Assembly: GCA_963759175.1 (NCBI GenBank)
Contig: CAVWXP010000008.1
Span: forward strand, 10,050 to 74,049
Length of the DNA: 64,000 nucleotides
Direction of reading: 5' to 3'
Source: an uncultured Acidimicrobiia bacterium
Lineage (GTDB): Bacteria > Actinomycetota > Acidimicrobiia > Spongiisociales > UBA5794
Positions 13,927 through 47,150 of the stretch are shown here, in pieces; the stretch's first letter is position 1; the number at the start of each line of letters is the position of its first letter. Made by a program: the position numbers and the translations under genes. A model generated the notes under the pieces. The model ran no database searches, was not told the DNA's origin, and worked only from the letters and a program-made list of their open reading frames with translations.

Positions 13927-15362
13927 GTGGCACGAGACCTTCCGGTCATCATCCAGGGCGGCATGGGCGCCGCCGTGTCGGACTGGCGTCTCGCACGCGC
14001 CGTGTCATCGTACGGCCAACTCGGCGTCGTCTCCGGTACGGCACTCGACGCCCTCCTGGTGAGACGACTCCAGGTCGGCGATCCCGGTGCACACATGCGT
14101 CGTGCGCTTGCTGCGTTCCCCATTCCCGAGGTCGGCCAACGGATCATCGACCGGTACTTCGTGGATGGCGGCACTGGCGAAGGGGAACGCTACGCAACCA
14201 AGCCGATGGTCTCGCACCGTTCATCGGATCGCACCGAGGAACTGATCGTCGCGGCCAACTTCGTCGAGGTGTTCCTCGCCAAGGAGGGACACGACAACCC
14301 GGTCGGTATCAACTTCCTCGAAAAGATCCAGGTACCGACACTCCCCTCCCTCTATGGAGCGATGCTCGCACGCGTCGACTACATCCTGATGGGCGCAGGG
14401 ATTCCCCGGGCGATCCCTGGGATCCTCGATCGGCTCGCCGAGGGCTTCGACGTCGAGATGCGCATCGATGTCAAGGGCGTCACCGACAAGGGGGACCCGT
14501 TCGTCCGGTTCTCACCGGCTCGCATCGCCAAGGGAGTCGTCGATCGGCTCCCGACGTCCCCGTTTCCTGGCCATCGTGTCCTCACACGTCCTTGCGAAGA
14601 TGCTCGCAACCAAGGCGTCGGGCGAGGTGGACGGCTTCGTCGTCGAGCTTCCCGTCGCCGGTGGGCACAATGCACCTCCGCGTGACCAAGGGGGTCTTCA
14701 ACGATCTCGGTGAACCACTCTACGGAGAGCGGGACGAGCCGGACCTCGAAGCCATCGCCGATCTCGGCAAGCCGTTCTGGCTCGCCGGTGGATTCGGCGA
14801 GCCCGGCCAGGTCGTCGCTGCCCTCGAGAAGGGCGCAACTGGCGTCCAGGTGGGCACCGCATTTGCCTACTGCAACGAGTCCGGGTTCACGAGGGAGGTC
14901 AAGGACGAGGTGATCCTCAAGTCACGTGCCGGTGAGCTCGAGGTCTTCACCGACGCCATCGCCTCCCCCACCGGGTTCCCGTTCAAGGTCGTCCAACTCG
15001 ATGACACCGCTTCGAACGCCGTGGTGTACGAGAAGCGCGAGCGGATCTGCGATCTCGGCTACCTGCGCCACGCCTACGAGAAGGAGAACGGATCGATCGG
15101 ATGGCGATGCCCGTCCGAGCCAGTGGACGACTACCTCGCCAAAGGCGGCGACATCGCCGACACGATCGGTCGCAAATGCCTGTGCAACTCACTGGTCGCC
15201 AACGTCGGTATGCCCCAGATCAAGAAGAACGGTGAGGTCGAACCCATGCTCGTGACGTCTGGTGACGATGCCGTCACGGTGAGCCGGTTCGCCCCCGAGG
15301 GATCGACCGAGTACTCGGCCGCCGACGTGCTCGACTACCTCCTCCAGGACGTCCACGCCTGA
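13927..15362 (+). CDS. nitronate monooxygenase (2-nitropropane dioxygenase/FabK-like), apparently frameshifted twice
   Basis: [14 protein letters not shown]-terminus and [14 protein letters not shown] core. The protein continues across three frames near 14556 (cccc run) and 14686 (ggggg run). GTG start with GGAGGA Shine-Dalgarno. Confidence 0.7.
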
Positions 15363-15382
15363 CACCCGCGGCGGCAGCGACG

Positions 15383-15787
15383 TCAGGGGGAACCGGGCAT
15401 CCACGTCTCGCTCACGGCGATCCATCGCCATCCGTGCCGCACCGACGGGTCCGCGGTCATGGCGACGGACGTTCGACGAGCGGTGCTCACATCGCCGTGG
15501 GTCTGGTGTTCCTCGTACGTTGCGAACACCACACCTCCCACTTGGCTCCTCACGACGGCGTTTGCGATCCGGATGGCAACGGTGCGGCGACCGAAACCCG
15601 CCTCCACGAGCTCGACGATCTCGGAGCGGTTCCGGATCGTGGCATCGGGACCGATGATGTAGAACCCGGGTCCGAGGGTGGAGGTGAACTCGTCGAGGTT
15701 GCGTGACGGGTCGCCGGCGAACCACCCCACGAAGAAGTCGTGGAGCCGCTCGATCTCTGCGACCACATCGCCTTCGGAGCTGATCAC
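15383..15787 (-). CDS. DUF4440/SnoaL-like (NTF2 fold) protein
   Basis: VVAEIERLHDFFVGWFAGD ... HGWRWIAVSETWMP matches the DUF4440 pattern. GTG start at 15787. Confidence 0.55.
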   Translation of the reverse strand: MISSEGDVVAEIERLHDFFVGWFAGDPSRNLDEFTSTLGPGFYIIGPDATIRNRSEIVELVEAGFGRRTVAIRIANAVVRSQVGGVVFATYEEHQTHGDVSTARRTSVAMTADPSVRHGWRWIAVSETWMPGSP

Positions 15788-15799
15788 GCCAGTGGTAGA

Positions 15800-16823
15800 C
15801 CGGAGATGTCGGAGGGTCCGGCGGCACGAGGAAACCACGTTCGGTGAGGATGAAGAGCCAGATGAGCGCTGGCACGGCAAGCACGGCCGAGGCTCCAAAG
15901 GCGATGAGAAGGCTCCATAGGACGGCCGCGGATGCAGCGCCTTCCTCGATGGTCAGGACGTCGGGCAGCAGCCATGGGTACTGGCCGATACCCCAGCCCC
16001 AGATGATTGCAGCTGTCGCCACCACGGCGAGGACACGCGAGAGATGCTGGCGTCGCCACCACACAGCCATGAGCGAACCTGCCCCCGCTACGGCAGACAG
16101 ACCTACCACCGCGATGCCTGCAGGCGACATCAACCCGTCATGCAGTGTCGGGTCATCGACGCTGATCACCGCGATTCCGCCGAGGGCGATCAATCCGGCC
16201 AAGGCACCCGATCCCATGGCTCGGTTGCGGAAATAGGAGGCGAGGTCGTCCCGGCCAGCCCGTGCCGCATCCCGTGACACCAGGACAGCAGCGAGATACG
16301 CACAGGTGACGACGGCCAGAAGGGCCCCAAGTCCTGAGGTGGGGTTGAGCCACGAGGTCCACGGGTCGCCCGCTGCATTGCCCAGGGGAACCCGTCCCGA
16401 CGCCACTCCGCCCGCGACCGCACCGAGGAACATCGGCGTCACGAACGATGATGCTGCGAACAGCGCCCCCATGACGCGTCGTTTCGACAGGGTCGGCGCC
16501 CATTTGCGGAAGGCGAATGCCGAACCGCGCATGATGATGCCGAATCCAGCAACCATCATCGGGATGTACATTGTCGTCATGATCGACACGAACGCAGTCG
16601 GAAAGGCCGTCCACAGGTAGACCAACACGAAGATCAGCCAGACGTGGTTCGCTTCCCACACAGGGCCTATCGATCGCTCCAGCTGGGAGCGAACATCGGA
16701 CCCGTCGTGAGCGCTCCCCGCGAACAGGTCCCAGATTCCCGCACCGAAGTCAGCCCCACCGAAGAGCGCATACGCAGTGACCCCAACCCAGATGATCGCA
16801 ACAACGACCTCGGCGAGGGTCAT
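15800..16823 (-). CDS. cydB: cytochrome bd ubiquinol oxidase subunit II (CydB); 3' end uncertain
   Basis: Starts MTLAEVVVAIIWVGVTAYALFGGADFGAGIWDL. About 331 aa of CydB-like TM sequence. The frame has no stop until 15189 and overlaps the DUF4440 gene. Confidence 0.75.
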
Positions 16824-17335
16824 GCATCCACCTTGGGGGGCCCGTACGGCGTCGGCACGTCCTCGCCAGCACGCATTCTTCGCGCAATGATCCGCAAGAC
16901 GGCAATCGTCAGGAACGTCAGCACGATGTAGAGGGCACTGATGGTCACGGCCGAAGCCACGACTCCCGTCGACGCTGACACCGCTCCAACGGTTCGCACC
17001 TGCTGCCAGACGATCCATGGCTGGCGACCGACCTCTGTCGTGACCCAACCAGCCTCCATGGCAACGATGGCAGCTCCACCCGCTGCGACGGCCGCCCACC
17101 AGAACACTCGCTGCTCGGGTGGCGCACGGCGTCTCCACCACGACCATGCAAACCACGCAGCCAGCACGAGAAGCGCCGACCCGATGCCGACCATGATCTG
17201 GAATGACCAATGCACGACGTTGACCGGCGGCAGGTCAGCCGCATCGACCGCATCGAATCCAGGGACCTCGGCGTTCACGTCGCGTGCGGCAAGGAACGAG
17301 GCGAGTCCCGGGATCTCGATGGCTCCCACGACCCT
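16820..17335 (-). pseudogene. cydA: cytochrome bd oxidase subunit I (CydA) C-terminal fragment only (5' two-thirds absent)
   Basis: HWSFQIMVGIG and EAGWVTTEVGRQPWIV (CydA C-terminal signatures) present. No CydA N-terminal sequence (heme b558 His, KLAAxEAxWET Q-loop) in any frame upstream. ATGA overlap with cydB retained. Confidence 0.65.
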
Positions 17336-17777
17336 CCTCGTCGGGCCTCGGGGCCCGTGGGTTGTCGGTGAAGCCTGCCTCGCGGTGCGACAGATCACAG
17401 AACGGTTGGTTGCCGCTCGCCCCGCACCGACACAGCGCCGCGCGTGGGCTCGCCGTGAATGCGTTGCCATCACGATCGGTCACCTCGATGGCGCCGCGCA
17501 CCATGAGCGGACCGTTGGGCCACGGGACGATCGTCGTCGGGACGTCCGGCACCTCACCCCGGGCCCCGTCGAGCCGCTCGTAGCGCAGCGCACCCGACGG
17601 ACACGACTCGATGGCCGCCACGACGGTCGCTGTCTCAGCCGCTTCCAGGTCGACCCATGGTCGCCGTCGCGTGTCAAAGGCTCCGTTGCCCTTGCGCAAG
17701 CAGATACCACTGTGGATGCAGAGGCTCGAGTCCCAGAGGACCCTGATCGCGTCGGATTCGTAGGTCCGGTGTGCCAC
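17235..17777 (-). CDS. iron-sulfur protein: divergent 4Fe-4S mono-cluster ferredoxin-like domain plus CDGSH-type domain
   Basis: CIHSGIC...CPSGAL (Fer4_13/DUF1271-like) and LCRCGASGNQPFCDLSH (CDGSH-like). The Arg-rich tail after about 17370 looks like read-through into the cydA deletion junction. Confidence 0.6.
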   Translation of the reverse strand: MAHRTYESDAIRVLWDSSLCIHSGICLRKGNGAFDTRRRPWVDLEAAETATVVAAIESCPSGALRYERLDGARGEVPDVPTTIVPWPNGPLMVRGAIEVTDRDGNAFTASPRAALCRCGASGNQPFCDLSHREAGFTDNPRAPRPDEEGRGSHRDPGTRLVPCRTRRERRGPWIRCGRCG

Positions 17778-22236: not shown

Positions 22237-22279
22237 GGTTGATCGTCTCCCTTCGGGTCACATGGTGCCGACACCGTCG

Positions 22280-23252
22280 TCACATCGTGATGACGGTCGT
22301 TCCACGGTTGTGCCCTTCGCCGACATGGGTGACCGCATCGATGCCCGTCGTCCAGCGGGTAGGTCCGATCGATAACTGGCATCACTGCGCCGCTCTCGGC
22401 CAGATCCCTGAGCGTGGCGAGGTCATCCTCGTTCGCGACCGACAGGAACGGGCGCCCTTGTTGCTTGTGCACCACCGATGCGAACGCCGACTTCACGGGC
22501 GTTCCGAGTCCTCCGAACCATCCGGTGGGAGCGGGCGCACCGTTGGCGAGGAGCAGGCCGTCGGGGCGAAGCACCTGACGCATGGCCTTGAGCGAGTGTT
22601 GACCGACGTTGTCGAAGACCAGGTCGTACACCGGCTCACCTTGCGTGAAGTCCTCACTGGTGTAGTCGATGACGTGGTCGGCGCCGAGGGACCGGACCAG
22701 GTCGATCGCCCCCGTCGAACACACACCCGTCACCTCGGCGCCCATCGACTTGGCGATCTGCACCGCAAAGGTGCCCACGCCCCCCGATGCGCCGGTGATC
22801 AGGACGTGCTGCCCGGGCGTCAAGTTGCCGTGGGTACGCAACGCCTGGAGGGCCGTCATCGCTGACACGCCGACTGCCGCGGCCTGCTCGGATGTCAGGT
22901 TGCCGGGCTTGGGAACCAGCGACTCGGGCTTGGTGGAAGCGTATTCGGCGAATGCACCCTTGCACGAACCGAACACCTCGTCTCCCGGTTCGAGAACGGT
23001 GACGTTCCTACCGACGGCCTCGACGGTCCCGGCGATATCGGTTCCGATGACGCCGCTCGGGCCTCGCATCGTTCGGAACATGGGCCGCATGACCTTCGGG
23101 TAGCCACGGACTCCGTAGACGGCGCCGATGTTGATTCCCGCTGCTGCGACGCGGACGACGACGCCGTCGTCATCGAGCGTTGGTTCGTCGATGTGAGAAA
23201 GTTCGAGTGCCTCTTTCGGCGTACCGAACCCAACTTGGACGATTCCCCTCAT
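22280..23252 (-). CDS. NAD(P)H:quinone oxidoreductase / zinc-type MDR alcohol dehydrogenase family, frameshift near C-terminus
   Basis: MRGIVQV...GASGGVGTFAVQIAKSMGA (Rossmann GxGxxG). The true C-terminus GIDAVTHVGEGHNRGTTVITM* lies in an adjacent frame after an extra G in a GGG run (about 22343). Confidence 0.75.
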
Positions 23253-23586: not shown

Positions 23587-23659
23587 TCATCGAAGTGGGA
23601 CGAGCCGACCAGACGGGATGGGGACGCGCTCCCGAAGGTCCGGGGAACACACCGGCCTC

Positions 23660-25396
23660 TCAGTCGGAGGGACTCCCCGCTCCGTCTGCAAGAGGTGGCT
23701 GCTGATCCTCGGCCAATTGCATTCGGCGGAGGAAGTCGGTGACGCCGTCGTCGACTTCGAGGTAGATGCCCTCGCCGGCGAGACGGTCAACGATGCCGGT
23801 CGACACAAGTTCGCCCTGTATCTCGGTTCTCACTCGCGCCATCGCGAATCCGATGGTCTCCTGGTCGAGTTGGTCGAGCATCTCGACGAGCACCTGGGCG
23901 CCGGTCGAATCGATGTCGGTGACGGCCTCGGCGTCGAGCAGCACCTCGGTGACCGCGTCTTCGGCCGTGTCGATGGCTGAGCTGATGTCGTTGCGGAGTT
24001 GGGTCGCGTTGGCGAAGAAGATCGGGGCGTCGAACCGGTAGATGAGGAGTCCGGGGAACGTCGTGGTGTCGGTGTGATCTTCAACGTCCCGGTAGGTGTC
24101 GGTTCCATCGAGACGCCCGAGCACCGCTGTGTGGGGGGACGACGCTCGCAGCACGACGGCGAGAAGCGACAGCGCCACGGCAACCAGGATCCCTCCGAGC
24201 ATCCCGATGATCAGCACGGCAAAGATCGTGAAGACGCCCATCCAGAACTCGGTTCGCCGATAGTGCCACAACGCGGTGAACTCGACGGTGTCGAGCAACC
24301 CGAGGCCGGCGACGATCACGACGCCGGCGAGGGTCGCATCCGGGAGATACGCGAAGACCGGAGCGAGCACGAGCAGGGTGAGGAGGACGAAAGCCGCCGC
24401 CCATAGATTCGCGACCTGGCTCTTCGCTCCCGCATCACCGAGCACGAAGCTCCTCGACTGGCTCCCGTTGACCGGGAACCCACCCAAGAACCCAGATCCG
24501 ATGTTGGCGGCACCGATCCCGAAGAACTCCCGGTTGGCGTCGAGGCGATAGTTGCTGATGCTGGCGAGGGAGCGGCCGGTGAGCACGCTGTCGGGATAGA
24601 CCAGCAGCGCCACGGCGAAGGCCGGACCCAGCAGACCAAGCGTGTCGCTGAGCGGAACCCCCGGCAGGCTCGGGATCGGAATGCCGGAGGGGAACTCTCC
24701 GACCACGGCAACGTCGATATTGAAGATCCATACGAGCGCCGTGAACACCACCACGGCCACGAGGGCTCCCGGAATCGCCCGTGCGAAGCGCTTGAACAGC
24801 ATGACGATCGCGATCGTGCCGACACCGATCGCCAGCGCAGCAAGATCGGTGTCGCCGAGGTTGCGAAGAACGCCACCGATGTCGGTGATGTAGAGACTCG
24901 CGTCGATGTCGATGCCGAACAGCTTCGGCAACTGGCTTGCGACGATCAGGATCCCCGATCCGAACACGTATCCGGCGAGGATGGGACGCGAGAAGAAGTC
25001 GGCGATTCGGCCGAGGCGCAGGAAGCCACCGATGAGCAGCATCGCTCCGACGAAGATGCTGAGCATCGCCGCCATGGCGATGTACTCCTCGGACCCCATC
25101 GCGGCTCGCGGCGCCAGGATCGTGGCGACCATGATCGCAACAGTGGACTCGGGCCCGACGTTGAGTTCCTTGCTCGAACCCCATATCCAGTAGAGGACGA
25201 GCGCCCCGACGGCGGCGTAGAGGCCGTTGACCGACGGCATGCCGGCAAGCGCGGCATATCCGAGCGACTGGGGGACCAGCATCGCCCAGACGGTCAACCC
25301 GGCGAGCATGTCGGGGCGAACCCAGGATCGCTTGTACCGCCTGAGCATCCCGATGCCCGGCGCAAACCGGTCGATTCCGTCCGTGTGTTCAGTCAT
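23660..25396 (-). CDS. SulP-family anion transporter with C-terminal STAS domain
   Basis: N-terminal LAGLTVWAMLVPQSLGYAALAGMP (SulP signature), about 10 TM helices and a STAS-like C-terminus. Confidence 0.85.
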   Translation of the reverse strand: MTEHTDGIDRFAPGIGMLRRYKRSWVRPDMLAGLTVWAMLVPQSLGYAALAGMPSVNGLYAAVGALVLYWIWGSSKELNVGPESTVAIMVATILAPRAAMGSEEYIAMAAMLSIFVGAMLLIGGFLRLGRIADFFSRPILAGYVFGSGILIVASQLPKLFGIDIDASLYITDIGGVLRNLGDTDLAALAIGVGTIAIVMLFKRFARAIPGALVAVVVFTALVWIFNIDVAVVGEFPSGIPIPSLPGVPLSDTLGLLGPAFAVALLVYPDSVLTGRSLASISNYRLDANREFFGIGAANIGSGFLGGFPVNGSQSRSFVLGDAGAKSQVANLWAAAFVLLTLLVLAPVFAYLPDATLAGVVIVAGLGLLDTVEFTALWHYRRTEFWMGVFTIFAVLIIGMLGGILVAVALSLLAVVLRASSPHTAVLGRLDGTDTYRDVEDHTDTTTFPGLLIYRFDAPIFFANATQLRNDISSAIDTAEDAVTEVLLDAEAVTDIDSTGAQVLVEMLDQLDQETIGFAMARVRTEIQGELVSTGIVDRLAGEGIYLEVDDGVTDFLRRMQLAEDQQPPLADGAGSPSD

Positions 25397-25405
25397 CTCG
25401 GTCCC

Positions 25406-25882
25406 TCACGGGTGTCTCGGGGTCGGTCGGCTCATGTCGGCTGGGGCGTCGTCGTGAGAGCCGTCTTTGGCGTTCCCGATCCGGGTGCCTCGCTCGACTT
25501 CGAGCTCGAGCAGCACATCGACAACATGATTCATCTGCTCATCGGTGACGGGATCGAACCGGTATGCCTCGTGGACGAAGGCCGCCGTGTCGCCTCGGAA
25601 GTCGTGTCCGAAGGACTTGAACTGTCCAGGAATCACTCGCATTGCGTTCATGGCATCCACCATCACCTGAACGAATGAGATCAGCGGCACCCATTCCATC
25701 CGTTCCGGCACCCCACGTCCCCTGGTGTCGGATGCAAGCCAAGCAGGGCGTTTCACCGCCATGCGGAATGACATCTGAGCGATCGGATCATTGTCGTGGT
25801 CCAGCACGATCGCCCGAAGCTGATTGGCTTCCGCTCGAGGGAGTCCATGCAACTCTTCGATGCGGTCGAACGCATCGTTCAT
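25406..25882 (-). CDS. hypothetical protein (operon partner upstream of SulP)
   Basis: 158 aa, 9 bp upstream of the SulP start. No recognised motif. Confidence 0.45.
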   Translation of the reverse strand: MNDAFDRIEELHGLPRAEANQLRAIVLDHDNDPIAQMSFRMAVKRPAWLASDTRGRGVPERMEWVPLISFVQVMVDAMNAMRVIPGQFKSFGHDFRGDTAAFVHEAYRFDPVTDEQMNHVVDVLLELEVERGTRIGNAKDGSHDDAPADMSRPTPRHP

Positions 25883-25943
25883 ATTCGATCTTTGGGGAAA
25901 TGGTTGGCGCTCATCGCGGTCGCCACTTCGTGTTCGAGATGCT

Positions 25944-26525
25944 TCAGGTTGAGATCCGTACGTACGTGATGGAGGGAACGTCGGCCAGGGTGTCTTCGAC
26001 GATCGACACCAGGCTCTCGGGACATCCGATCACCAGGCTCACTCCACAACGGTCTGTCTGACCACCGACGCGGGCGAGATCCCCCCACGACATCGACCTC
26101 CGGGTCTCAGCAGCGAGCGTTGAGAGCCCTGCGCGCTCCCCTGGTTTGCCTGCGAGGTAGCCGGTTCCATCAACAGCCGACGGGTATAGCCAAAGGACGA
26201 GGCCGGTTGCCGGCCCCCAACCGTCCCCGAGCGCTCGACCGATAGTTGATGAAAGAGCGAACTTCCTGAGGATCTTCGTTGCCCCGCCGTCTTGTGGTCC
26301 GACGATCGCCATATCGACCTGGTCGACAACGTTCCTCTCGACGAGGAGGTCCTTCACCGCCTGATAGGCATTTCGGGCCGCTTCAACGGACTCCAGACAT
26401 GCTGTGATGAGGACGATGGTCTCAGGCCCTGGGGATTCGCTGTCGTCATACCGATCCGGAGGCACAGCGTCACTCCAACGACGGCGCTGTGGCTGAGACA
26501 CCAGCCGATGCACCAGATCGCTCAC
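25944..26525 (-). CDS. DUF1269-like (general-stress-type, tandem ACT-like fold) protein
   Basis: ETIVLITAC...AARNAYQAVKDLLVERNVVDQVDMAIV pattern resembles DUF1269/YflT-type proteins. Weaker than the second copy at 36001. Confidence 0.45.
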   Translation of the reverse strand: MSDLVHRLVSQPQRRRWSDAVPPDRYDDSESPGPETIVLITACLESVEAARNAYQAVKDLLVERNVVDQVDMAIVGPQDGGATKILRKFALSSTIGRALGDGWGPATGLVLWLYPSAVDGTGYLAGKPGERAGLSTLAAETRRSMSWGDLARVGGQTDRCGVSLVIGCPESLVSIVEDTLADVPSITYVRIST

Positions 26526-26574
26526 GAGGTTCGTACTTCATATGCGAGACCATTGCGCGCTTCGATCAATGGCG

Positions 26575-26592
26575 CATCACCCGAAACGGGTG
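26575..26592. promoter_or_regulatory. palindromic motif CATCACCCGAAACGGGTG (copy 1 of recurring CACCCG-N3-CGGGTG element)
   Basis: 50 bp upstream of the DUF1269-like gene start. An identical 15-bp palindrome architecture recurs four more times in the window. Confidence 0.6.
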
Positions 26593-26614
26593 CGATTGGT
26601 GGAAGGTCCGCGGC

Positions 26615-29358: not shown

Positions 29359-29368
29359 AGGCAGGCAC

Positions 29369-31413: not shown

Positions 31414-32283
31414 ATGCGTCGCTTCCGCAACATTCCAAACGTGATCCTCATGGTGGTTCTGGCCCTGGCGGTCGGACTCGCCGCGTGCGACAGCGACACT
31501 TCCATCGAATTGCGCCCCGAGGATGGGACCGCAGCTCCAGAATCCCCTGAGGCCACCACGCCACCCGAGACGGCACCTCCCGAAACCCCAGATGTGGGAG
31601 GCAACGGTGACGCCGCTCAACCCGCCGACGGAGAAGACGGCGACGGTATCCCGCCCTGGGTGTGGATCGTCGGACTTCTTGCGCTCGTCGGACTCGTCTC
31701 GTGGCTCGGAGCGCGCTCAGGGTCCAATCGTTCAGAACCCGCCGATGCAGCTCAACCTCCGCCAACTCCGGACGAACCAGCGGCCGCGGCCGTTCGCCAA
31801 GCGCTTGGTGATGCCCAATGGCTCCACGACAAGTTCGACACGATTGCGGTCGTCTCCCATGCCGACGCGACATATGCATCCACCACGAACCCGGATTCCC
31901 CACCGCCCCTGTCTACAGATTGGGATGCGATTCCGTCACGTCTCGCCGATGCGAGAAGCAGCCTCACTACGGCATCAGGGGTGACACGTGATCCAGCAAT
32001 CGCCAACGCATGCACGCAGCTGATGTCGCATATGGATTCGACGAGCACGGCCATCTCCGGTTGCCACGACGCTCGGGTTGCTCGTCGGGCAGCCGATGAC
32101 GGTCTACCCAACGCAATTCCGCAACAAGAAGCGTGGGCTGCGGATCAGCGAGCCCAGGACGACCTGTCGGTTTCGCGGTCCGCCCTGCAGGTCGGGATGC
32201 GACCGCCTCGTCCGCGCGCGGCATCTGAGCATTCAGGCGAGGCCTCGGCGATCCGGTCCCGGGCGAAAGGGAACATGAAATGA
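31414..32283 (+). CDS. Pro/Glu/Thr-rich lipoprotein with a second TM segment
   Basis: Lipobox LAAC after a signal peptide. A low-complexity acidic/proline region, then a TM helix. Confidence 0.45.
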   Translation: MRRFRNIPNVILMVVLALAVGLAACDSDTSIELRPEDGTAAPESPEATTPPETAPPETPDVGGNGDAAQPADGEDGDGIPPWVWIVGLLALVGLVSWLGARSGSNRSEPADAAQPPPTPDEPAAAAVRQALGDAQWLHDKFDTIAVVSHADATYASTTNPDSPPPLSTDWDAIPSRLADARSSLTTASGVTRDPAIANACTQLMSHMDSTSTAISGCHDARVARRAADDGLPNAIPQQEAWAADQRAQDDLSVSRSALQVGMRPPRPRAASEHSGEASAIRSRAKGNMK

Positions 32284-32636
32284 CGACTGAGGGAAGTCCC
32301 TCCCCGACTCGTCTGGCAGAACAACGGACCTACTTGGCGGCCGAGCGGACGCTCTTCGCCGTGCTGCGGACTGGTTTGGCCATCGCTGCCGGAGGCTCGG
32401 TGATCGTCTCCTTGCTTGGGGACCGCTGGCCATCGTGGATCCAGGTCCCCCTCGCGTCCGTGTTCCTCGTCGTGGGTTACGCCTTGGTACTCCTGGGCCT
32501 TCGCCGCTACCAAAATATCGCGAGGCGAGTCGAAGCTCGGGGTGGGAAGGAGCTCGACATCGTTCCCGTTCGCACCATGACGATCCTCACCTACTCGCTC
32601 GAGATCGCGATCACGGTGGTCGTCGTCCTTTTCTGA
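32280..32636 (+). CDS. DUF202 (YidH-like) membrane protein
   Basis: LAEQRTYLAAERTLFAVLRTGLAIAAGG matches the DUF202 signature. ATGA overlap with the upstream gene. Confidence 0.6.
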   Translation: MTTEGSPSPTRLAEQRTYLAAERTLFAVLRTGLAIAAGGSVIVSLLGDRWPSWIQVPLASVFLVVGYALVLLGLRRYQNIARRVEARGGKELDIVPVRTMTILTYSLEIAITVVVVLF

Positions 32637-32903
32637 CCGGCTCGTTCAACAGCTGAGGGCCGGACCGGACGCATCCGATCACCTCCCGCCCGATGGCACC
32701 AGAGCCGGTACCACCAAAGGGGGGCGACCTCACGGTCGCCCCCCCCTCGTGTACGCGTTGTCCGACTGCTACTGCCTCGCCATCATCCTCTGATACTTGA
32801 GGTCGTCTGGCTCGAGATGGCTGACATCGTCATCCTCGAGGTCGATCCGAACCCAGTTCAGCGTGCCCTGATATGCAATCGCGGCACCAGGGAGCTTTGG
32901 CGA

Positions 32904-34573
32904 TCATCCCTCGTCCGATGATTCGTCTGCGATCCAGACATGACCGCGGTCGATCGCCTCCTCGACCTCGGCTCGCATCTCGGCTCTCGCTTGGCTCACG
33001 TTCCCTTCGCCGATCGAGGCCGCTGCCCCCGTCACCTCGAGTTGAGCGAGGGCGGTCTCCTCGACTCCTACCAACTGGAGGCGGCACGACGCAGACTCCA
33101 ACGCCTTGGCATACCGCTGAAGCGTGTCGGTGAAGGTGGTCCCGAGGTCCTCCAACCCTCGCAAACGGAGAATCACGACAGAACGTTCGGAGTCGTCGGT
33201 GATGACTGGCAGGAGTTCCTCGAATACGGCTGCGGAGGCGAAGAAGACTGACCCGTATGGTTGGAGAACGATCACCTCGCGACGACCGACGGCCTCGGGA
33301 GCGTCCGATTCGACGGCTCCCTTGTCGGTCAGCTCGATGCGGCGGATCGAGACATTCGCCGAACTCCCGATGATGTAGAGAAGCATGGAGAGGACCACTC
33401 CAACGAGGACCGCGTATTGCAGGGGGATCACGATCGTGAGCACCAATGTCGCTCCCATGCCGATTCTCTGGATCCTTCCTGCATTCCAGATGGCCACGAT
33501 CTCGGGAACCTTCACCGTTCGGTACCCGACGACCATCAGAAGGGCCGCCAGGGCGGGCATGGCTATGTATCCGACCACGCCGGCCAGGAAGATGATCGTG
33601 ACGGCCATGACGCCACCGGCGATGAGCTGGGCGAGGGATGTACGCATCCCAGCTTCTTTCACGAGGGACGTCGCAGAAGCCGAACCCCCGACGGGCATGC
33701 CACGGAACAGCCCAGATACCAGGTTGCCGACTCCCTGACCGATGAAGTCCTTCGAGGCGTCCCCGTAGCTGCCGTCCGGATTCGGGAACGCACTGGTGAT
33801 TCCCGCTCCTTGGACGAGGCCCACAAACGCGAGGGCGATCGCCGGGATGATCAGCGATGGAACGGCATCGAGCACGGGAATGCTCGGAACAGGCAACCCG
33901 CTCGGGATGTCTGCGATCGACCGCAGTTGGAGCACGTCGCCACCGAAGGCCAGAGCTGCAACAGAACCAGCAGCAACCGCGACAACCATCCCGAGAGCGC
34001 CCAGTCGAGTCCGTTCCAAAAGGACGATCGCCGCGACTGTCCCCAGTCCGATTGCGAGTGTGGCCGAATCGACCTGCAATGGGTGCGCTACGAGGTCCAG
34101 GGTTCGTGCGAGCCTGTTGCTCCCCTCTGCCGCGTAGCCGGTGAAATTGTCGAGCTGCCCAAGGACGATGTTGATCCCAACGGCGCTCATGAAGCCCACC
34201 ATCACCGACTTCGAGACGAATCGGAGGATGAATCCGAGCTTCAGGAGGCCAGCGACGAGCATGACAACCCCGGTTAGGAGCGCGAGGCGAAGAGAACACG
34301 ATCGGCGTCTTCGCCGACTCGTACGATGCCGACGTCAGCCACCACCAGACTCATGGCTCCCGTCGCCTGGACAGTCATGTACACGGTCGATGTGGCAAAT
34401 GCTGCCCCCACCATGCCGTACAGATATCCGTACAGGCCGAATACGGGGTTCACCCCCGCGACGAGGCCTTGTGCAAGGCCGTCGGGAATACTCTCGACAC
34501 CAAGCACGAGTCCCGCTACCGAGTCCCGCTTGAGGTGAGCCGGATCGAATCTCGCACGAATCCGTTCGAGCAT
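32904..34573 (-). CDS. SulP-family anion transporter with STAS domain (second copy), one frameshift
   Basis: N-terminal SulP signature (GLAQGLVAGVNPVFGLYGY) in ORF 34274..34573 and the transporter body plus STAS in 32904..34262. The frames join near 34270-34290. Confidence 0.75.
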
Positions 34574-34580
34574 GGGCCAG

Positions 34581-35930
34581 CTAACTCCTTCGATCCGTCA
34601 TGGCACGACGATGCAGCGATCGACACGACGCTTCATCACCCGTTTCGGGTGCTTCGGGCGGGACGGAATGCCGTGCTGACGCATCAGCCGGTTTCGGCAC
34701 CCCGAGCTTGGTGATCTCCGACGGGGCTCGGCCCGAGACGAGGAGTCGACACATGAGCTTCATGGCTGGATCGATGTGGGAGAACAGCCCCTTGTATGAC
34801 GGGCAGAGGTAGTTGAGCCCGGGGTCGCCATCCGGGGTCTCGGTGAACCGGTTCCGTGGGCACCCGCCGTGGCACGCGAAACGGACGTCGCAGTCGAGGC
34901 AATACTCTGGAAGGGTGTCGCGCTTGGCCCGTCCGAACGCCTTCTGCTTGTCGGAGGCTACGAGGTCGATCATCGGGGTCTCGGTGATGTTGCCCAGTAG
35001 ATGGTCGGGCTCGACGAAGTGATCACACGAGTACACATCGCCGTTGTGTTCCATCGCCAGGGCCAGTCCACACGTCTCCTGATGGATGCACAGTCCTCCC
35101 GGCTCGCCGTACCAGCTTGCGAGAGCAGTATCGAACGTCTGGACGTACACCTCACCGACGTCACGCTTCACCCACTCATCGAATATCTCGATGAGGAAGC
35201 GGCCGTATCCCCCCGGCGACACCGAGCGGTCGGTCACGAACGTGCCCGTCTGCGTATACAAGGGCCGCTTGTCCTTCTTCGACGTAGACCATCCGAGATT
35301 CGCCAGCGGGAGGAATGTCTCCGTGGACCGCTCGATGATCGGAATGAACTGGATGAATCGCGCCCCGAGTTCGTCACGGAAGAACCGATACACCTCGGGG
35401 CCCCGCTTCTCGTTCGCGGCATGAACGGTGCACAGAATGTTCACATCCACCCCGGCCTCGATGAGGTGCCGGTGACCGCCCATCACGCGGTCGAACGAGC
35501 CAACCCCGCGACGATCGGTCCGATACGCATCATGCACATCCTTCGGCCCGTCAACGGAGAGTCCAACGAGGAACCCGTTCTCCCTGAAGAACTCGGCCCA
35601 CCGATCATCGATGAGAACCCGTTCGTCTGGATCGTGTAATCGATCTGCTGGCCCGGTCGACGGTGCCGGTCAACGAGTTCAACAGACCGACGGAAGAAGT
35701 CGAGCCCCATCATTGTCGGTTCGCGCCCTGCCATGCCACGGTGACATTCGGGGTCTTATGGGATTCGAGTAGCTGCCTCAGGTACTCCTCGAGCAACTCG
35801 TCAGCCATCCGGAACCGATCACCGGGATACAGCATCTCCTTCGACAGGAAGAAGCAGTAGTCACAATCGAGGTGCAGATCGGTCCGGTCGGCTTCGCCAA
35901 CATGTGATAGGCCGGAGGCTTGACCGCCAT
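34581..35930 (-). CDS. anaerobic sulfatase-maturating enzyme-like radical SAM/SPASM protein (AslB/AtsB family), at least three frameshifts
   Basis: HMLAKPTGPIC...DCDYCFF (CxxxCxxC region), GLDFFRRSVELVDRH...IQTNG, and a SPASM Cys cluster (CIHQETC...CDHF...CLDCDVRFACHGGCP). The pieces are in different frames via single-base deletions. AAGGAG Shine-Dalgarno upstream of 35930. Confidence 0.7.
34633..34650. promoter_or_regulatory. palindromic motif CATCACCCGTTTCGGGTG (copy 4)
   Basis: 60 bp upstream of the SulP #2 start codon. It lies within the doubtful 3' tail of the anSME ORF. Confidence 0.55.
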
Positions 35931-36000
35931 CAGTGACTGACTCCTTCAGGTGAGCGACTCCGGGAGGACACTGCCTCCGAAGACCGATGCGCGATGCGAG

Positions 36001-36786
36001 TTATGCCTCGGGTGCGGCCTCTTCCTCTTGTTCATCATCTGCCGGTTCTTCCTCTTTCGCAACTGCTGCACCGTCAGGGGTGTCGACGGTATCCACGACG
36101 GCCGCCACCTCGTTGTACGTGACGCCATCTTCGTCAGCGACCGCAGTCCGAATGTCGACGGCACCCTCGGTTGCATCGATGCTGAACACGGCAAGCTCGT
36201 CAGCGCTTGCAACGACTTTCCTGGCCGCTACGCCGTCCTCGGTGACCACCACGGCCATGAGAACGTCCTCTTCGGCTGCAAGGTGATCGCGGATGATGGC
36301 CGAGATCTCCTGCGCTGTGGCCATCGTCTCTTCATCGGTCGACTCGGACCTGACTGCCTCGATGAACGCCGTGCTGGTCGTCACGACAATCGCCGACGAG
36401 CCCTCCGGAAGAGCAGCGCCGAGCTCGTCGAGCGATCGATTGTCAAAACCCGCATCAGAGTGTGCCGCGACCCCACCGACCGCTGCGCCGGCGCCTGCCC
36501 CGAGTGCCACTCCGGCTGGTCCACCCAACACACCGATGAGTCCACCGATCAGCGCTCCGATTCCTGCTCCCTTGCCGGTGCTCATGTCACCGGATTCATT
36601 GATGTGTACGTGCCCGCCCGTGTCCCGGCGGACAATGGCCGCATCCTCGAAGTCGATCAAGCCATCCATGCGTACTTGTCGGGCCCTGTCCAAGGTCTCC
36701 TTGGCTGCTGATTCATCGCCGTACGCCGCAATCACGACACCGACCCCGATTGGGCCCTCTACCTGGGATTCATCGCTCACGATCAT
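36001..36786 (-). CDS. DUF1269-family protein (tandem repeat, Gly-zipper membrane segment)
   Basis: VIAAYGDESAAKETLDRARQVRMDGLIDFEDAAIVRRDTGGHVHINE followed by a GxxxG-rich segment. The second half repeats the fold. Confidence 0.6.
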   Translation of the reverse strand: MIVSDESQVEGPIGVGVVIAAYGDESAAKETLDRARQVRMDGLIDFEDAAIVRRDTGGHVHINESGDMSTGKGAGIGALIGGLIGVLGGPAGVALGAGAGAAVGGVAAHSDAGFDNRSLDELGAALPEGSSAIVVTTSTAFIEAVRSESTDEETMATAQEISAIIRDHLAAEEDVLMAVVVTEDGVAARKVVASADELAVFSIDATEGAVDIRTAVADEDGVTYNEVAAVVDTVDTPDGAAVAKEEEPADDEQEEEAAPEA

Positions 36787-36887
36787 TCGCTCCTTCTGGG
36801 TGTCCTCACTGGTGCCTGACGCGGATGATGGATCCGCTGCAGGCTCTGTCGTCCATGACGCATGGTCAAGGATCCGACACCGAGCGG

Positions 36888-36905
36888 CATCACCCGTTTC
36901 GGGTA
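36888..36905. promoter_or_regulatory. palindromic motif CATCACCCGTTTCGGGTa (copy 5)
   Basis: The 17-mer CATCACCCGTTTCGGGT is identical to copy 4. 102 bp upstream of DUF1269 #2, in the divergent region shared with the MBL hydrolase. Confidence 0.55.
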
Positions 36906-37183
36906 TTGCGAAGCCATCCAGGTCGGGTGCGCGACCGCCCGAGATCGTTCCACAGGCCGGTCGTCCGTGGCGCCGGAAGCGGGACCGGATCCACCTACGA
37001 CGAGAACCTCCGGTTGCGTGACGTCATGATCCACGATGTTGACAATGCGCGAGGCGCTCGGGTTCTCAACAGGGCCCGACAAGCAGCACACACGATGGTG
37101 CGTCACCGTTTCGAGGATCGGAAGGGCCGTCGCCGCCAACACGCGTAGGGTTGGCGACCTGAGCGGCGATCTGGAAAGGCTCG

Positions 37184-37951
37184 ATGCAGACGAACGTGAT
37201 CGAGGTGGCATCGGACGTCTTCTTCGTAAAGGGGCCTCGCACCAACTGGTGTCTGATGCACAATGAGGACGCTGTCACCCTCATCGATGCTGCCTGGCCC
37301 AGGGATTACTCGTTCGTCATCGACTCTCTACGCCAGATCGGGGCTTCTCCGCAGCAGGTCGAGGCGGTTGTCCTGACGCATGCCCATCCGGACCATGTCG
37401 GTGTGGCGGAGCGATTCCGCGCCGATCACGGTGCGGTCGTTCACACGCATCGTGCGGAGGAGGGCCACGCAATCGGCCGGTACCACGAGCATGTGCGAAC
37501 AGTCGATCTCGTCGTCCGGATGTGGAGGCCTTCGGTCTTCGCCTTCGCGATCAACGCGATCGCTCGGGGAGGCTCAAGGACGACCCCGGTGGCTTCGGTC
37601 GACACATTCGACGTATCGGCCATCAGCGTTCCGGGAGGACGTCTCGTACCGGTACCCACACCCGGCCACACGAGCGGCCATTGCTCGTTCCATCTGCCGG
37701 ATCACGGAGTCGTCATAACCGGCGATGCGCTCGTGAACCGCAATCTTCTCACCGATCGCCCCGGACCGCGGCTGATGCCATCCATCTTCAGCCACGATCC
37801 ATCCGAGGCAGTGAGATCCCTCGATGCCCTTGCCGGACTCGAGGCCGATGTGCTGTTGCCCGGTCACGGACAAGCCATGCGCATGACGCCCGACGATGCT
37901 GTTGCCAAAGCAAGAAGCCGATTCATGCACGCAGGGAGATGGGACCGCTAG
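37184..37951 (+). CDS. MBL-fold metallo-hydrolase
   Basis: THAHPDH metal-binding motif, plus downstream His/Asp ligands. Confidence 0.8.
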   Translation: MQTNVIEVASDVFFVKGPRTNWCLMHNEDAVTLIDAAWPRDYSFVIDSLRQIGASPQQVEAVVLTHAHPDHVGVAERFRADHGAVVHTHRAEEGHAIGRYHEHVRTVDLVVRMWRPSVFAFAINAIARGGSRTTPVASVDTFDVSAISVPGGRLVPVPTPGHTSGHCSFHLPDHGVVITGDALVNRNLLTDRPGPRLMPSIFSHDPSEAVRSLDALAGLEADVLLPGHGQAMRMTPDDAVAKARSRFMHAGRWDR

Positions 37952-37980
37952 CACAGCCATATCCAGGCATCACCTGACGG

Positions 37981-38262
37981 GCTTCAAATTCGTCGCCGTG
38001 CCGCTTGCACGGCAAGCTTCTCCTTCTCCAAAGCCTCCGTGGCGTCTGAACGGCCAGAGCGGAGCGGAACACCGGAGCGCAGAGAGCCCACACAGGAGAA
38101 GCCCCACGGCTTGGCCGCAGGGCTTCGAATCCGTCGCCGTACCGCTTGCGCGGCGGGCTTCTCCTGTTCTCCAAAGCCTCCGTGGCGCTTGAACGGCCCG
38201 AGCGGAGCGGACACCGGAGCGCAAGGCGCCCACGATTGGGGAGAACCCACGCCGACGAACGT
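37981..38262. repeat. tandem duplication of an approximately 141-bp unit (2 copies, about 85% identity) downstream of tRNA-Val(GAC)
   Basis: The copies align. Each contains a tRNA T-arm-like GGCTTC(A/G)AAT(T/C)CG segment and internal stems (GCCGTGC-N5-GCACGGC). Confidence 0.6.
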
Positions 38263-38314
38263 GCCGGTCAATGAATTGGGGGGAAGACCGCCAAGCAATC
38301 GTTCTCCCCAATCG
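38233..38314. repeat. 14-bp perfect inverted repeat CGATTGGGGAGAAC ... GTTCTCCCCAATCG (54-nt spacer) abutting the 3' end of tRNA-Val(GAC)
   Basis: Seen in sequence. The right arm ends one base before the tRNA 3' end. Confidence 0.6.
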
Positions 38315-38386
38315 TGGGCGCTACTGGATTTGAACCAGTGACCCCTGCCGTGTCGAGGCAGTGCTCTGCCGCTGAGCTAAGCGCCC
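38315..38386 (-). tRNA. tRNA-Val (anticodon GAC)
   Basis: GGGCGCTTAGCTCAGCGG..., anticodon loop CTCGACACG? read as TCGACAC, GGTTCAAATCC T-arm. Confidence 0.85.
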
Positions 38387-38440
38387 GGGTTTGTCGGTGA
38401 CCAGAAGATAGCCATCGAGGATGACATACCACTGCGGTCG

Positions 38441-38511
38441 AGGCGACGCCGGGAATCGAACCCGGGTACAGGGTTTTGCAGACCCTTGCCTCGCCACTCG
38501 GCCACGTCGCC
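38441..38511 (-). tRNA. tRNA-Cys (anticodon GCA)
   Basis: GGCGACGTGGCCGAGTGG..., anticodon loop CTGCAAA, GGTTCGATTCC T-arm. Confidence 0.8.
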
Positions 38512-38544
38512 AATAGGAAGGGCGGTCCTCGAGACCGCCCTCTC

Positions 38545-38620
38545 TGGAGCGGACGACCGGGTTCGAACCGGCGACCTCAACCTTGGCAAGGTTGCGCTCT
38601 ACCAGCTGAGCTACGTCCGC
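38545..38620 (-). tRNA. tRNA-Gly (anticodon GCC), CCA encoded
   Basis: GCGGACGTAGCTCAGCTGGTAGAGC..., anticodon loop TTGCCAA, GGTTCGAACCC, ...TCCA. Confidence 0.85.
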
Positions 38621-44840: not shown

Positions 44841-45473
44841 GTGCCCGATCGCACCGAGCTCACCGACCGCCAACGCCAGATCCTCGACCTCATCCGCTCC
44901 ACGGTCGCCCAGCGCGGCTATCCGCCGTCGGTCCGCGAGATCGGCGACGCGGTCGGGCTCAGCTCGCCGTCGACGGTCCACAGCCACCTGTCGTCGCTGG
45001 CCGAAGCCGGCTTCATCCGCCGTGACCCGACCAAGCCTCGCGCCATCGAGGTCGTCGACGACGACGATGGCGCCATCCCGATCTCACGGGCAGCGGTTCG
45101 CGATGTCCCCCTCGTCGGCCACATCGCAGCCGGTAGCCCGATCCTCGCCGAGGAGGACATCGAGGAGGTCTACCCCCTACCCACGGAACTCGTTGGTACC
45201 GATCCCGTCTTCATGCTCCGGATCCGGGGCGATTCCATGATGGACGTCGGGATCTACGACCGCGACTACGTCGTCGTCCAGAAGCAGTCCACGGCGAAGA
45301 ACGGCGACATCGTCGCTGCGCTCGTCGGTGGTGAGGAGGCCACGGTGAAGCGGTTCGAGCGCACCGACACGGGCGTCGTCCTGCATCCCGAGAACGATGC
45401 CTACGAGCCGATGGTCTTCACCAAGGACATCGAGGTTCTCGGTGTCGTCGTAGCGGTGTTGCGAAGGCTCTGA
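44841..45473 (+). CDS. lexA: LexA repressor
   Basis: N-terminal winged HTH (LTDRQRQILDLIRS...), AAG cleavage region and S24 peptidase (GDSMMDVGI...). GTG start with AGGAGGG Shine-Dalgarno. Confidence 0.9.
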   Translation: MPDRTELTDRQRQILDLIRSTVAQRGYPPSVREIGDAVGLSSPSTVHSHLSSLAEAGFIRRDPTKPRAIEVVDDDDGAIPISRAAVRDVPLVGHIAAGSPILAEEDIEEVYPLPTELVGTDPVFMLRIRGDSMMDVGIYDRDYVVVQKQSTAKNGDIVAALVGGEEATVKRFERTDTGVVLHPENDAYEPMVFTKDIEVLGVVVAVLRRL

Positions 45474-45494
45474 GCACCTTCCAGGCAACCACGA

Positions 45495-46250
45495 TCAGTC
45501 GACGGATCCCCTGAAGACGACCTCGGCCGGACCCTCCATCCATGCGCCGGACTCGTCGAACGAGATCGTGAGCACTCCCCCGCGCAGGTGCACGGCGACA
45601 GGAGCCTCGACGCCACGGATCGTATGGGCCATGTAGGCAGCTGCGGTGGCTCCCGTTCCGGATGCCATGGTCTCCCCGACGCCCCGCTCCCAGATCCTCA
45701 CCCGGATACCACCGTCGTCGAGGATCTCCACGAATTCGACGTTCGTCCGGTTCGGGAAGATCGGGTCGCGCTCGATCCGCGAGCCCACCTCCGCAACATC
45801 GGCGGCATCGACATCATCGACGAAGAGGACGGCATGGGGATTGCCGATGGCGAAGGGATGGACATCCCAACCGGCCACACGCAACGTGCCGGTGCGGAAT
45901 CCCACCGGGTCGCCAACGAAGGCCACCACGGTGTCCGCCTTGACCGTCACCGGATGGTCCCCGGCCTTCGTTTCGACCACGAACTCGCGGCCGTCGACCC
46001 AGCCACGCTCGTACCCGAGCCGCGCAACGCAACGGAGGCCGTTGCCGCACATCTCGGCCTCTGAACCGTCGGCATTCCAGTAACGCATCCGGATGCGGGT
46101 CTGGTCGATCGAATCGATGACGAGGACGCCGTCGGCACCGATCCCCGTCTGACGCTCGCACCAGCGCACGACGACGTCCGAAGCCGGATCGAACGGTCCG
46201 TCGATGACGATGAAGTCGTTGCCCAATCCCTGGACCTTCACGAAGTCCAT
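45495..46250 (-). CDS. dapF: diaminopimelate epimerase
   Basis: MDFVKVQGLGNDFIVID ... CGNGLRCVA (DapF active-site Cys motifs). Confidence 0.9.
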   Translation of the reverse strand: MDFVKVQGLGNDFIVIDGPFDPASDVVVRWCERQTGIGADGVLVIDSIDQTRIRMRYWNADGSEAEMCGNGLRCVARLGYERGWVDGREFVVETKAGDHPVTVKADTVVAFVGDPVGFRTGTLRVAGWDVHPFAIGNPHAVLFVDDVDAADVAEVGSRIERDPIFPNRTNVEFVEILDDGGIRVRIWERGVGETMASGTGATAAAYMAHTIRGVEAPVAVHLRGGVLTISFDESGAWMEGPAEVVFRGSVD

Positions 46251-47150
46251 CCCGCAGCCTCCCCTATCGCTGCCACTGCGTCGTCGATTCGCCGTGCACG
46301 GTCATCCTGCCACGCCAGCCACTCAATCCGCGGATCTCGTCGGAAGAAGGTGCGTTGGCGCTTCACGAGGCCCATCGTCGCAGAGAGCACCTCCACGGTG
46401 GCCTCGGTGAGCGTCGTGTCGCCGTGCACCACGGGGATCAGCTCCTTGTACCCGACCGCCTGACGAGCCGTGCGTCCGAGCGAATCGAGCGAGACCGGCA
46501 ACCTCATCGACGAGCCCCGCTGCGACCATGTCGTCGAATCGGGCCTCGACTCGCTCCCGAACGGCCTCTCCCGGATCGATGCCGACGGCTGTGAACGACA
46601 GATAGCGGCCGATACTCGGCCACGTCAGCGGCCTTCGTTCGAAGTCGCCCGAGCCGTGGGCGTCAATCCGGTCAGCTGCTCCACTTCCACGGCTCGGATC
46701 ACACGCCGCGGATTGTCGAGGTCGACGAGCTCACCCGCGGAGGGGTCGGAGACCAGCAGGCGATCCACGAGGTCGTCGAGGTCCATGGCCTCGAGCTCTG
46801 CACGAACCGCCGGGTCCGTCGGCGCAAACGTCAACGGGTCGACGAGAGCACGGAAGTGCAGACCGGACCCGCCACAGACGATGACGCGACCCCGACGGGC
46901 GATCTCCTCATCGATCGCCGATCGCCCCAGGTCCTGGTACGTACGGACATCGAAGTCCTCGGAGGGATCAGCGACATCGACCATGCGGTAGGTGATCTCG
47001 GACCGGATGGCCGCCGATGGCTTTGCGGTTCCGATGTCCATGCCCCGATACGCCTGCATCGAGTCGATGGAAACGATCGAGGCACCGAACCGGCGTGCTG
47101 CCGCCTCGGCAACCTCGGACTTACCCGAAGCAGTCGGCCCGACGATCGCG
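46238..47150 (-). CDS. miaA: tRNA dimethylallyltransferase MiaA (frameshift between 46507 and 46625; start codon unclear)
   Basis: IVGPTASGKSEVA P-loop just after the miaB stop. SMQAYRGMDIGTAKP. C-terminal AVGYKEL region in ORF 46238..46507. Confidence 0.7.

Follow-up and report, generated by a model that had tools for sequence, protein, structure and literature searches.

Pseudogene-rich reductive genomes, such as those of Mycobacterium leprae and of recently host-restricted symbionts, contain many frameshifts, with several hits per gene and with the housekeeping genes spared. Phase-variable contingency loci are marked by long homopolymer or repeat tracts. Here we describe 16 one-base frameshifts in 11 genes of a 64,000-nucleotide stretch of DNA (the window) from an uncultured Acidimicrobiia bacterium (GenBank assembly GCA_963759175.1, contig CAVWXP010000008.1, positions 10,050 to 74,049). 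Like decay of the M. leprae type, the window shows many frameshifted genes, multiple hits per gene and spared housekeeping functions; it differs in that relaxed selection and nonsense codons are missing, the ratio of indels to substitutions is too high, the lesions are absent from conspecifics and the insertions are not those of slippage. With contingency loci it shares a one-base length change that alters the reading frame, but it lacks long tracts, and its sites are scattered in the coding regions of unrelated genes. Phase variation and recoding do not explain the feature, nor does it have the properties of genuine pseudogenes.

Two described kinds of assembly error are closer. Consensus indels in long-read metagenome-assembled genomes (MAGs) cause frameshifts and fragmented genes (Sereika et al. 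2022, PMC9262707). Flye merges strains that are 97.6-98.65% identical into consensus sequences (Strainberry paper, PMC8302730), and once an assembly is collapsed, allelic variants that lie close together give rise to wrong read alignments, INDEL errors and 'apparent frameshifts' (Cosentino et al. 2021, PMC8445201). As in the first kind (PMC9262707; proovframe preprint 10.1101/2021.08.23.457338), one-base indels in the window split conserved open reading frames (ORFs) that are intact in short-read assemblies; the classical profile, however, depends on homopolymer length, and here none of 72 scored runs of at least five bases is discordant. As in collapsed-haplotype artefacts (PMC8445201, PMC8302730), indels in the window fall in the patches where two near-identical assemblies disagree most, and the insertions hold two alleles of one site in tandem. 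The case of PMC8445201 is a diploid eukaryote, whereas the alleles here would belong to co-occurring bacterial strains or recombinant patches. Judged from the sequence, most of the 16 shifts are very probably assembly or consensus artefacts rather than gene decay, and the 11 genes are most likely intact in the organism. Most probably the feature is a case of consensus indel error in a long-read metagenome assembly, a known class, and falls under its collapsed-haplotype subtype and not its classical homopolymer one; on this reading it is not a biological feature.

Frameshifts were detected by three-frame reading together with Pfam profile coordinates, and were placed at the level of single bases by alignment to close relatives. 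All seven genes that a previous examination of the letters alone (the sequence-only reading) had named were found to be frameshifted by these means, including SulP#2, with a deletion at about 34286. The total stands at eight insertions and eight deletions in 11 genes, ten of which are itemised: NMO (2), QOR (1), a 195-aa gene (1), LAL (1), a 271-aa gene (1), DUF202 (1), SulP#2 (1), anSME (4), MBL (1) and miaA (3). Four of these, MBL, the 195-aa gene, the 271-aa gene and DUF202, are additions to the list of the sequence-only reading. All 16 shifts lie within 14.5-46.6 kb, and their sign (+1 or -1) is clumped along the window; outside this interval each Pfam-checked gene is a single intact ORF, and the housekeeping block at 47-64 kb (rny, miaB, recA, cinA, ftsK and others) is free of shifts. 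Against their 16 one-base indels, the 11 frameshifted genes showed no nonsense codon. Flags raised by a tblastn frame-change screen at 38.3-38.6 kb and 40.64 kb were discarded, as they reflect tRNA genes and shadow-frame or intergenic effects.

Relatives of the window fall into three sets: at least nine short-read contigs of the same population (98.4-99% identity), sisters at 92-93%, and one sibling long-read contig (ERZ25039603 contig_23971, 217 kb, loci L173, L177 and L179). The sibling is 99.67% identical to window positions 50614-38025 and about 99.1% identical to 23597-17338 and 15826-6268. Its name, 'contig_23971', is Flye-style; the source contig of the window measures 243,444 bp, while short-read assemblies of the population break at 14.5 kb or less, and we infer that the source contig is of long-read origin. 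The window has a G+C content of about 64%. Among the species representatives searched, none has a DapF more than 76% identical to that of the window, and the best matches are all uncultured Acidimicrobiia. Comparison with sister genomes, which the sequence-only reading had recommended, gave a uniform answer: every gene tested against independent short-read assemblies is intact there.

The genes compared with sisters and with the sibling are listed here, each followed by its shifts; inserted bases (further below also missing ones), or the two tandem alleles, are in square brackets.

13927 to 15362, plus strand: nitronate monooxygenase (NMO), read through three frames (f0, f1, f2), its Pfam NMO profile split over two ORFs
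14554, plus strand: +1 in NMO, CTCCCG[A]CG; the Pro codon is CCG in L085 and CCA in L086 and L088
14683 to 14685, plus strand: +1 in NMO, CG[T]GACC; the synonymous Arg alleles are CGG in L177 and L086 and CGT in L085
22280 to 23252, minus strand: quinone oxidoreductase (QOR; ADH_N / ADH_zinc_N), its C-terminal 21 aa in another frame
22343, minus strand: +1 in QOR, gene strand GAC GAC GGG [C] ATC, after a third codon position
46238 to 47150, minus strand: miaA (IPPT), read f0, f1, f2, f0; intact in P0001-P0005 and L081-L083
46632 to 46639 (about 46632), minus strand: +1 in miaA, GA[A][G] GCC; GAA or GAG in sisters, absent from L173
46603 to 46605 (about 46604), minus strand: +1 in miaA, CCG C[T][A]T CTG; CTT in L081 and CAT in L083, shared with L173
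46487 to 46489 (about 46488), minus strand: +1 in miaA, CTC G[C][T]C GAT; GCC in L081, GTC in L173 and L082, absent from L173

A reconstructed MiaA query retrieved five intact proteins at 89-91% aa identity. The contigs L081-L083 (MEGAHIT or JGI contigs) align to window positions 50916-44315 at 91.6-93.2% nt identity, and across these 6.6 kb the only coding indels are the three miaA insertions, with none in rny, miaB, dapF or lexA; the gene is thus frameshifted as had been proposed, by three insertions rather than one. An exact DapF look-up for short-read backbone contigs reaching miaA returned only the sibling and one 1.3-kb contig. A suspected broken hflX beside dapF was dismissed, the neighbours being lexA and a LysM gene, both intact.

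The split of NMO was also seen by frameshift-aware alignment to P0121 and other homologues, and in L085, from the metagenome scan with NMO, the frame is open (97% aa and 92% nt identity). At 14554 both alleles of the relatives stand in tandem, and this insertion is common to the window and the sibling locus L177; the insertion at 14683-14685 is absent from L177 and lies outside the GGGGG run at 14690-14694. Two NMO shifts had been predicted, at that run and at a CCCC run (14558-14561): the number was right, and the sites lie 4-7 nt away. The QOR shift, for which L173 of the sibling was the only comparator, removes the end of the ADH_zinc_N_2 domain from the main frame. It is absent from L173, which has a +1 of its own at the equivalent of 22427. 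Here an extra G in a GGG run had been expected; there is indeed one +1, although the inserted base is a C after GGG, with equivalent effect.

A second group of genes was compared with a conspecific short-read contig.

32904 to 34573, minus strand: SulP#2 (Sulfate_transp + STAS), 556 aa, intact in L084
34286 to 34287: -1 in SulP#2, TTC ACA CTC in L084 against TTC GC- CTC in the window, at a third codon position next to a single-nucleotide polymorphism (SNP)
34684 to 35930, minus strand: anaerobic sulfatase maturase (anSME; radical SAM + SPASM), 416 aa and intact in P0146/L084
34689 to 34690: -1 in anSME, CCC to CC, two codons before the stop
35617 to 35618: -1 in anSME, GGGG to GGG
35723 to 35724: -1 in anSME, GG to G (GGC G[G]C GAA)
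35872 to 35873: -1 in anSME, AA to A (TGC A[A]C CTC); restoring the base gives CNLDCDYC
37045 to 37951, plus strand: metallo-beta-lactamase-fold gene (MBL), its N-terminal 39 codons in another frame
37162, plus strand: +1 in MBL, CCTG[A]GCGG, not a duplication, after a third codon position

The reconstructed anSME retrieved an intact protein, P0146, at 99% aa identity, whose contig is L084. This contig aligns to window positions 37799-32889 (4.9 kb) at 98.9% identity, with 49 substitutions and six one-base gaps: the four anSME deletions, the SulP#2 deletion and the MBL insertion. All four L084 genes are open, L084 covering only the N-terminal part of MBL, and DUF1269, between anSME and MBL, is untouched. 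In the window, positions 1-68 and 80-372 of the SulP#2 profile lie in different frames, and the main anSME ORF is without the first half of the radical-SAM domain. The missing A that restores NLDCDYC had been recognised from the letters alone, with three deletions counted where four are found. Next to these genes, at the place of the window junction 32888|32889, an arylsulfatase gene of at least 650 aa with a CSPTR motif is present in L165, L166, L167 and L084. In the window this gene is cleanly deleted, and approximately its last 45 codons remain (about 32750-32888), adjoining the frameshifted anSME and SulP#2.

The remaining shifts have lower coordinates than this junction.

25879 to 26465, minus strand: hypothetical gene, 195 aa in L165 and 173 aa in the window
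25968 to 25969: -1 in the 195-aa gene, plus-strand ACGTG[G]ATGG, GG to G, covered by L165 only
26615 to 29282, minus strand: LAL-type regulator (AAA_16 + WHD/TPR_MalT + GerE), 888 aa and intact in L165
28636 to 28637, minus strand: +1 in LAL, gene strand GTC GCG [A] ACG GAG, after a third codon position
31414 to 32228, plus strand: hypothetical 271-aa gene, its C-terminus shifted in the window
32197 to 32198: -1 in the 271-aa gene, GGGA[T]TGCG, TT to T; the window differs from eight of eight conspecific contigs
32280 to 32656, plus strand: DUF202, 125 aa in conspecifics and 118 aa in the window
32629 to 32630: -1 in DUF202, GTCCT[G]TTTC, no homopolymer, third codon position; the window differs from all five covering contigs (L165-L169)
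32739 to 32740: intergenic +2 in the C-run of a G6..C8 terminator-like hairpin (32715-32745), where conspecifics have C6

An exact look-up of the DUF7144 protein of the window gave eight conspecific contigs from different runs, at 98.4-99.0% identity, which place four window-specific coding indels (25969, 28637, 32198 and 32630). Wherever these contigs cover LAL, the 271-aa gene or DUF202, the frame is open. The window LAL is split between two frames, the AAA part in one and TPR_MalT with GerE in another, and its insertion is absent from all eight contigs; the gene had rightly been called shifted, at a GGGG run that is not the site, the insertion sitting at GCG[A]ACG. Near LAL, an intergenic A-run at 29343 varies in length among the short-read contigs themselves, so that at this site the indel polymorphism is natural.

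Most indels of the window are private to it. Over 5.6 kb aligned nine ways, 28 substitutions and four indel events occur in the window alone, against 32 private substitutions and no private indel in the eight short-read contigs taken together, whose mutual distance is 0.3-1.4%. Overall, 14 of the 16 coding indels are found in no other sequence, and the other two (14554 and about 46604) are shared with the long-read sibling only; none of the coding lesions of the window was found in the conspecific short-read contigs.

The sequence-only reading had rested on a homopolymer bias, typical of long-read or pyrosequencing errors, and this rationale is not supported. Relative to the four closest references, discordance shows no rise with run length: 8 of 7086 runs of two, 2 of 1232 runs of three, 1 of 262 runs of four and none of the 72 longer ones (60 of length five, 12 of length six or more), the C6/C8 hairpin not being scored. 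That G6..C8 hairpin is the only discordant run of five bases or more. Three of the four runs named as indel sites do not hold the indel, and phase-variable tracts, which it had been proposed to look for, are lacking, the sites being runs of one to four bases with no repeat tract. With long runs concordant and most insertions outside runs, the assembly appears to be polished or of higher accuracy, with another cause of residual error.

The insertions point to what that cause may be. Six of the eight do not duplicate a neighbouring base (CCG[A]CG, CG[T]GACC, GGG[C]ATC, CTG[A]GCG, C[T][A]T and G[C][T]C), and replication slippage is therefore unable to produce them; six of eight come after a third codon position. 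In five of the seven testable insertions, the adjacent bases match two alleles found among relatives at one and the same site: CC[G][A] (CCG or CCA) and CG[T][G] (CGT or CGG) in NMO, and GA[A][G] (GAA/GAG), C[T][A]T (CTT/CAT) and G[C][T]C (GCC/GTC) in miaA. By a rough estimate, the probability of such a pattern arising by chance is about 1e-4. Most of the testable insertions fall at polymorphic sites, and the deletions are mixed, those at 34286, 32198 and 13833 being at or near SNPs and those at 35872, 35723 and 34689 not. The site at 13833-13835 is intergenic: the window lacks one base where L177 has C and L085 has T, and so has neither allele of a SNP. A simpler hypothesis, in which every insertion would be a plus-strand A, was dropped, as the LAL insertion is a T and the second NMO insertion, once realigned to L177, is better taken as a T/G allele pair.

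The sibling contig also has broken miaA, NMO and QOR, mostly at other positions. It is without the window insertions at 46632, 46488, 14683 and 22343, and it has private frameshifts at the equivalents of 46473 (miaA), 14196 (NMO), 22427 (QOR) and 38701 (a 210-aa gene). The difference at 38701 was rejected as an error of the window, since the proteins of relatives show the window to be correct and L173 to be in error. Substitutions between the two assemblies are concentrated in the same short patches as the frameshifts: 17 of 38 fall within 190 nt of miaA, and another cluster, of about 20, occupies 260 nt at the end of QOR, compared with 0.15-0.3% elsewhere. In these patches (46475-46666 and 22237-22497) the two long-read assemblies differ by 5-9% and by several indels, and the alleles match different sister lineages, which indicates recombinant haplotypes in the population or a mosaic consensus.

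The most likely course of events can be outlined. Long reads from a community with several strains about 1% apart, and with locally far more divergent recombinant patches, would have been assembled into the contig. Where the haplotypes differ, read alignments would disagree, and the consensus would retain the two alleles next to each other (+1) or drop both (-1). Deletions in short runs would remain unpolished wherever coverage of the chosen haplotype was thin, as might be the case for the sulfatase-deletion variant. The precise consensus mechanism may differ from this outline, but collapsed strain haplotypes fit the profile better than raw homopolymer miscalls do. The comparisons favour the core of the sequence-only reading, which preferred sequencing or assembly indels to decay, through intact relatives, private indels and the lack of relaxed selection; its homopolymer rationale is not supported.

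Selection on the affected genes does not appear to be relaxed. Window-specific codon changes in miaA comprise 13 synonymous and 3 non-synonymous, compared with 14:8, 15:11 and 14:6 in the intact genes of sisters, making the window the more constrained. Compared with the intact conspecific copy, anSME has 7 substitutions (0.56%) and 4 indels; its ratio of non-synonymous to synonymous changes is 3:4, and that of SulP#2 is 5:6, about 1:1 as in intact neighbours. Nor is the mix of lesions that of decay: the 11 genes contain only one-base indels, and truncations are found in other genes (cydA and the sulfatase).

Several observations weigh against an artefact. The evidence consists of assembled contigs only; a real ancestral lesion would look just like the insertions at 14554 (NMO) and about 46604 (miaA) that the window and the sibling have in common; and repeated hits per gene (four in anSME, three in miaA, two in NMO), with the housekeeping genes at 47-64 kb spared, are what selection on real mutations would leave. 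Moreover, the five deletions in anSME and SulP#2 lie in short runs outside SNP-dense patches and adjoin the clean deletion of the arylsulfatase that these genes would serve, a coherent decay scenario. This suggests a mixed explanation, in which the insertions are artefacts and the deletions at 32.2-35.9 kb (four in anSME, one in SulP#2, perhaps those in DUF202 and the 271-aa gene) arose by real slippage, the maturase/permease pair having become useless once the adjacent arylsulfatase was lost. The arylsulfatase of conspecifics, at least 650 aa, lies exactly at the clean junction 32888|32889, all seven coding deletions between 32198 and 35872 flank it, five of them in anSME and SulP#2. Slippage would be expected to act on short homopolymers such as those at the four anSME sites (AA, GG, GGGG, CCC), and the SulP#2 deletion is a complex change beside a SNP. 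Yet no nonsense codon is present, and none of nine conspecific contigs shares the deletions. Neutral decay yields roughly one indel per ten or more substitutions, and anSME combines four indels with seven substitutions, of which 3 are non-synonymous and 4 synonymous, a number near the lower limit of normal strain diversity. In addition, poor coverage of a minority structural variant would also leave deletion errors clustered in this place. Given this high ratio of indels to substitutions, the lack of shared lesions, the intact DUF1269 in the middle of the stretch and the thin-coverage alternative, we consider operon decay unlikely.

A broader claim, that all or most of the frameshifts are real and reflect recent pseudogenisation of accessory genes and miaA, with ancestral lesions shared with the sibling and later hits in dead genes, is more doubtful still. 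Two lesions shared with L173/L177, extra private hits in the same genes, the sparing of housekeeping genes and structural losses nearby (sulfatase deletion, cydA truncation, IS481 remnant) are all compatible with it, and because of the shared lesions and the real losses we keep real decay under consideration. It is contradicted by the 13:3 ratio in miaA, by zero nonsense codons against 16 frameshifts, by insertions that are mostly non-duplicative, beyond slippage and made of tandem alleles at SNP sites, and by eight conspecific contigs without any coding indel. The window and L173 differ by about 0.15% elsewhere, yet a stretch of 190 nt in miaA accumulates 17 substitutions and 3 indels, a clustering that uniform neutral decay cannot yield. 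The names of the closest contigs are, we presume, in the style of sediment metagenomes; the apparent habitat would then be free-living sediment, with nothing to point to host restriction or a bottleneck, in contrast to the M. leprae type of decay. Real frameshifts could also come from heteroduplex misprocessing between divergent haplotypes, leaving both mismatch bases in the repaired strand; within recombination patches of a free-living lineage this would inactivate genes such as miaA, NMO and QOR, with the shared lesions ancestral, and seems highly improbable. Functional recoding, by programmed ribosomal frameshifting or phase-variable contingency tracts, is hardly credible. The miaA shifts (+3) and the first three anSME shifts (-3) do each net to zero, which in principle restores the downstream frame, but a stop in the old frame follows almost directly after the first miaA shift (GAA GGC CGC TGA), the genes of relatives are read straight through in one frame, and conservation of the sites fails already in the sibling at 99.7% identity; the sites are runs of at most four bases or no run at all, with no repeat tract.

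The consensus-artefact explanation matters for annotation. Read literally, the sequence would depict the decaying genome of a sediment actinobacterium in which miaA, the sulfatase maturase, a sulfate permease, a regulator of the LuxR family and several enzymes are gone. Because the frameshifts are very probably consensus errors, the genes should not be called pseudogenes; they are better annotated as intact or as 'frameshifted, probable assembly error', and gene-loss and completeness inferences from this MAG call for caution. As a by-product, the analysis offers a reads-free diagnostic of strain-collapse errors in long-read MAGs, its signs being non-duplicative +1 insertions after third codon positions, two SNP alleles made adjacent, and clustering where sibling assemblies disagree; the tandem-allele signature was here derived from comparison with relatives.

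Other features of the window concern the structure of the strain. Positions 23598-38024 (14.4 kb) are absent from the sibling (L173/L177), which has 480 nt of other sequence there. This segment contains SulP#1, LAL, AI-2E, DUF7144, a K-channel gene, DUF202, SulP#2, anSME, DUF1269 and MBL, and abuts a tRNA-Val/Cys/Gly cluster at 38314-38620. Its 98.4-99% identity to at least nine short-read contigs gives it the appearance of an island that varies between strains and is more frequent in metagenomes than the backbone is.

The cyd genes follow NMO. On the minus strand, cydB (15830-16862) is complete, and its ORF overruns the C-terminus of its sisters by 212 codons, a tail that is not conserved and may hide an extra shift. 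Only the C-terminal 170 or so codons of cydA remain (16825 to about 17335), fused behind a CDGSH/Fer4_19 gene (17357-17777). Both genes are absent from the sibling and from short-read L178, the order NMO-cydB-cydA occurs in L088, L095 and L096, and L086 has neither.

Upstream of NMO, beyond the range of the sequence-only reading, the plsB C-terminus may hold a further indel at 11977: the window has one base more than L177, five codons before the plsB stop of L177, and its plsB ORF overruns the start of the next gene. An IS481-like transposase fragment at 2479-3081, with three frame breaks relative to an ORF in L075 (63% identity), probably represents an insertion sequence in decay. Next to tRNA-Val(cac) (6280-6352) the window has a tyrosine integrase (5020-6180), where the sibling instead has, after an FGE-sulfatase gene, a sulfatase gene split into ORFs of 162 aa and 329 aa. 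The integrase and tRNA-Val, together with this difference from the sibling, suggest a second integrated element in the strain of the window.

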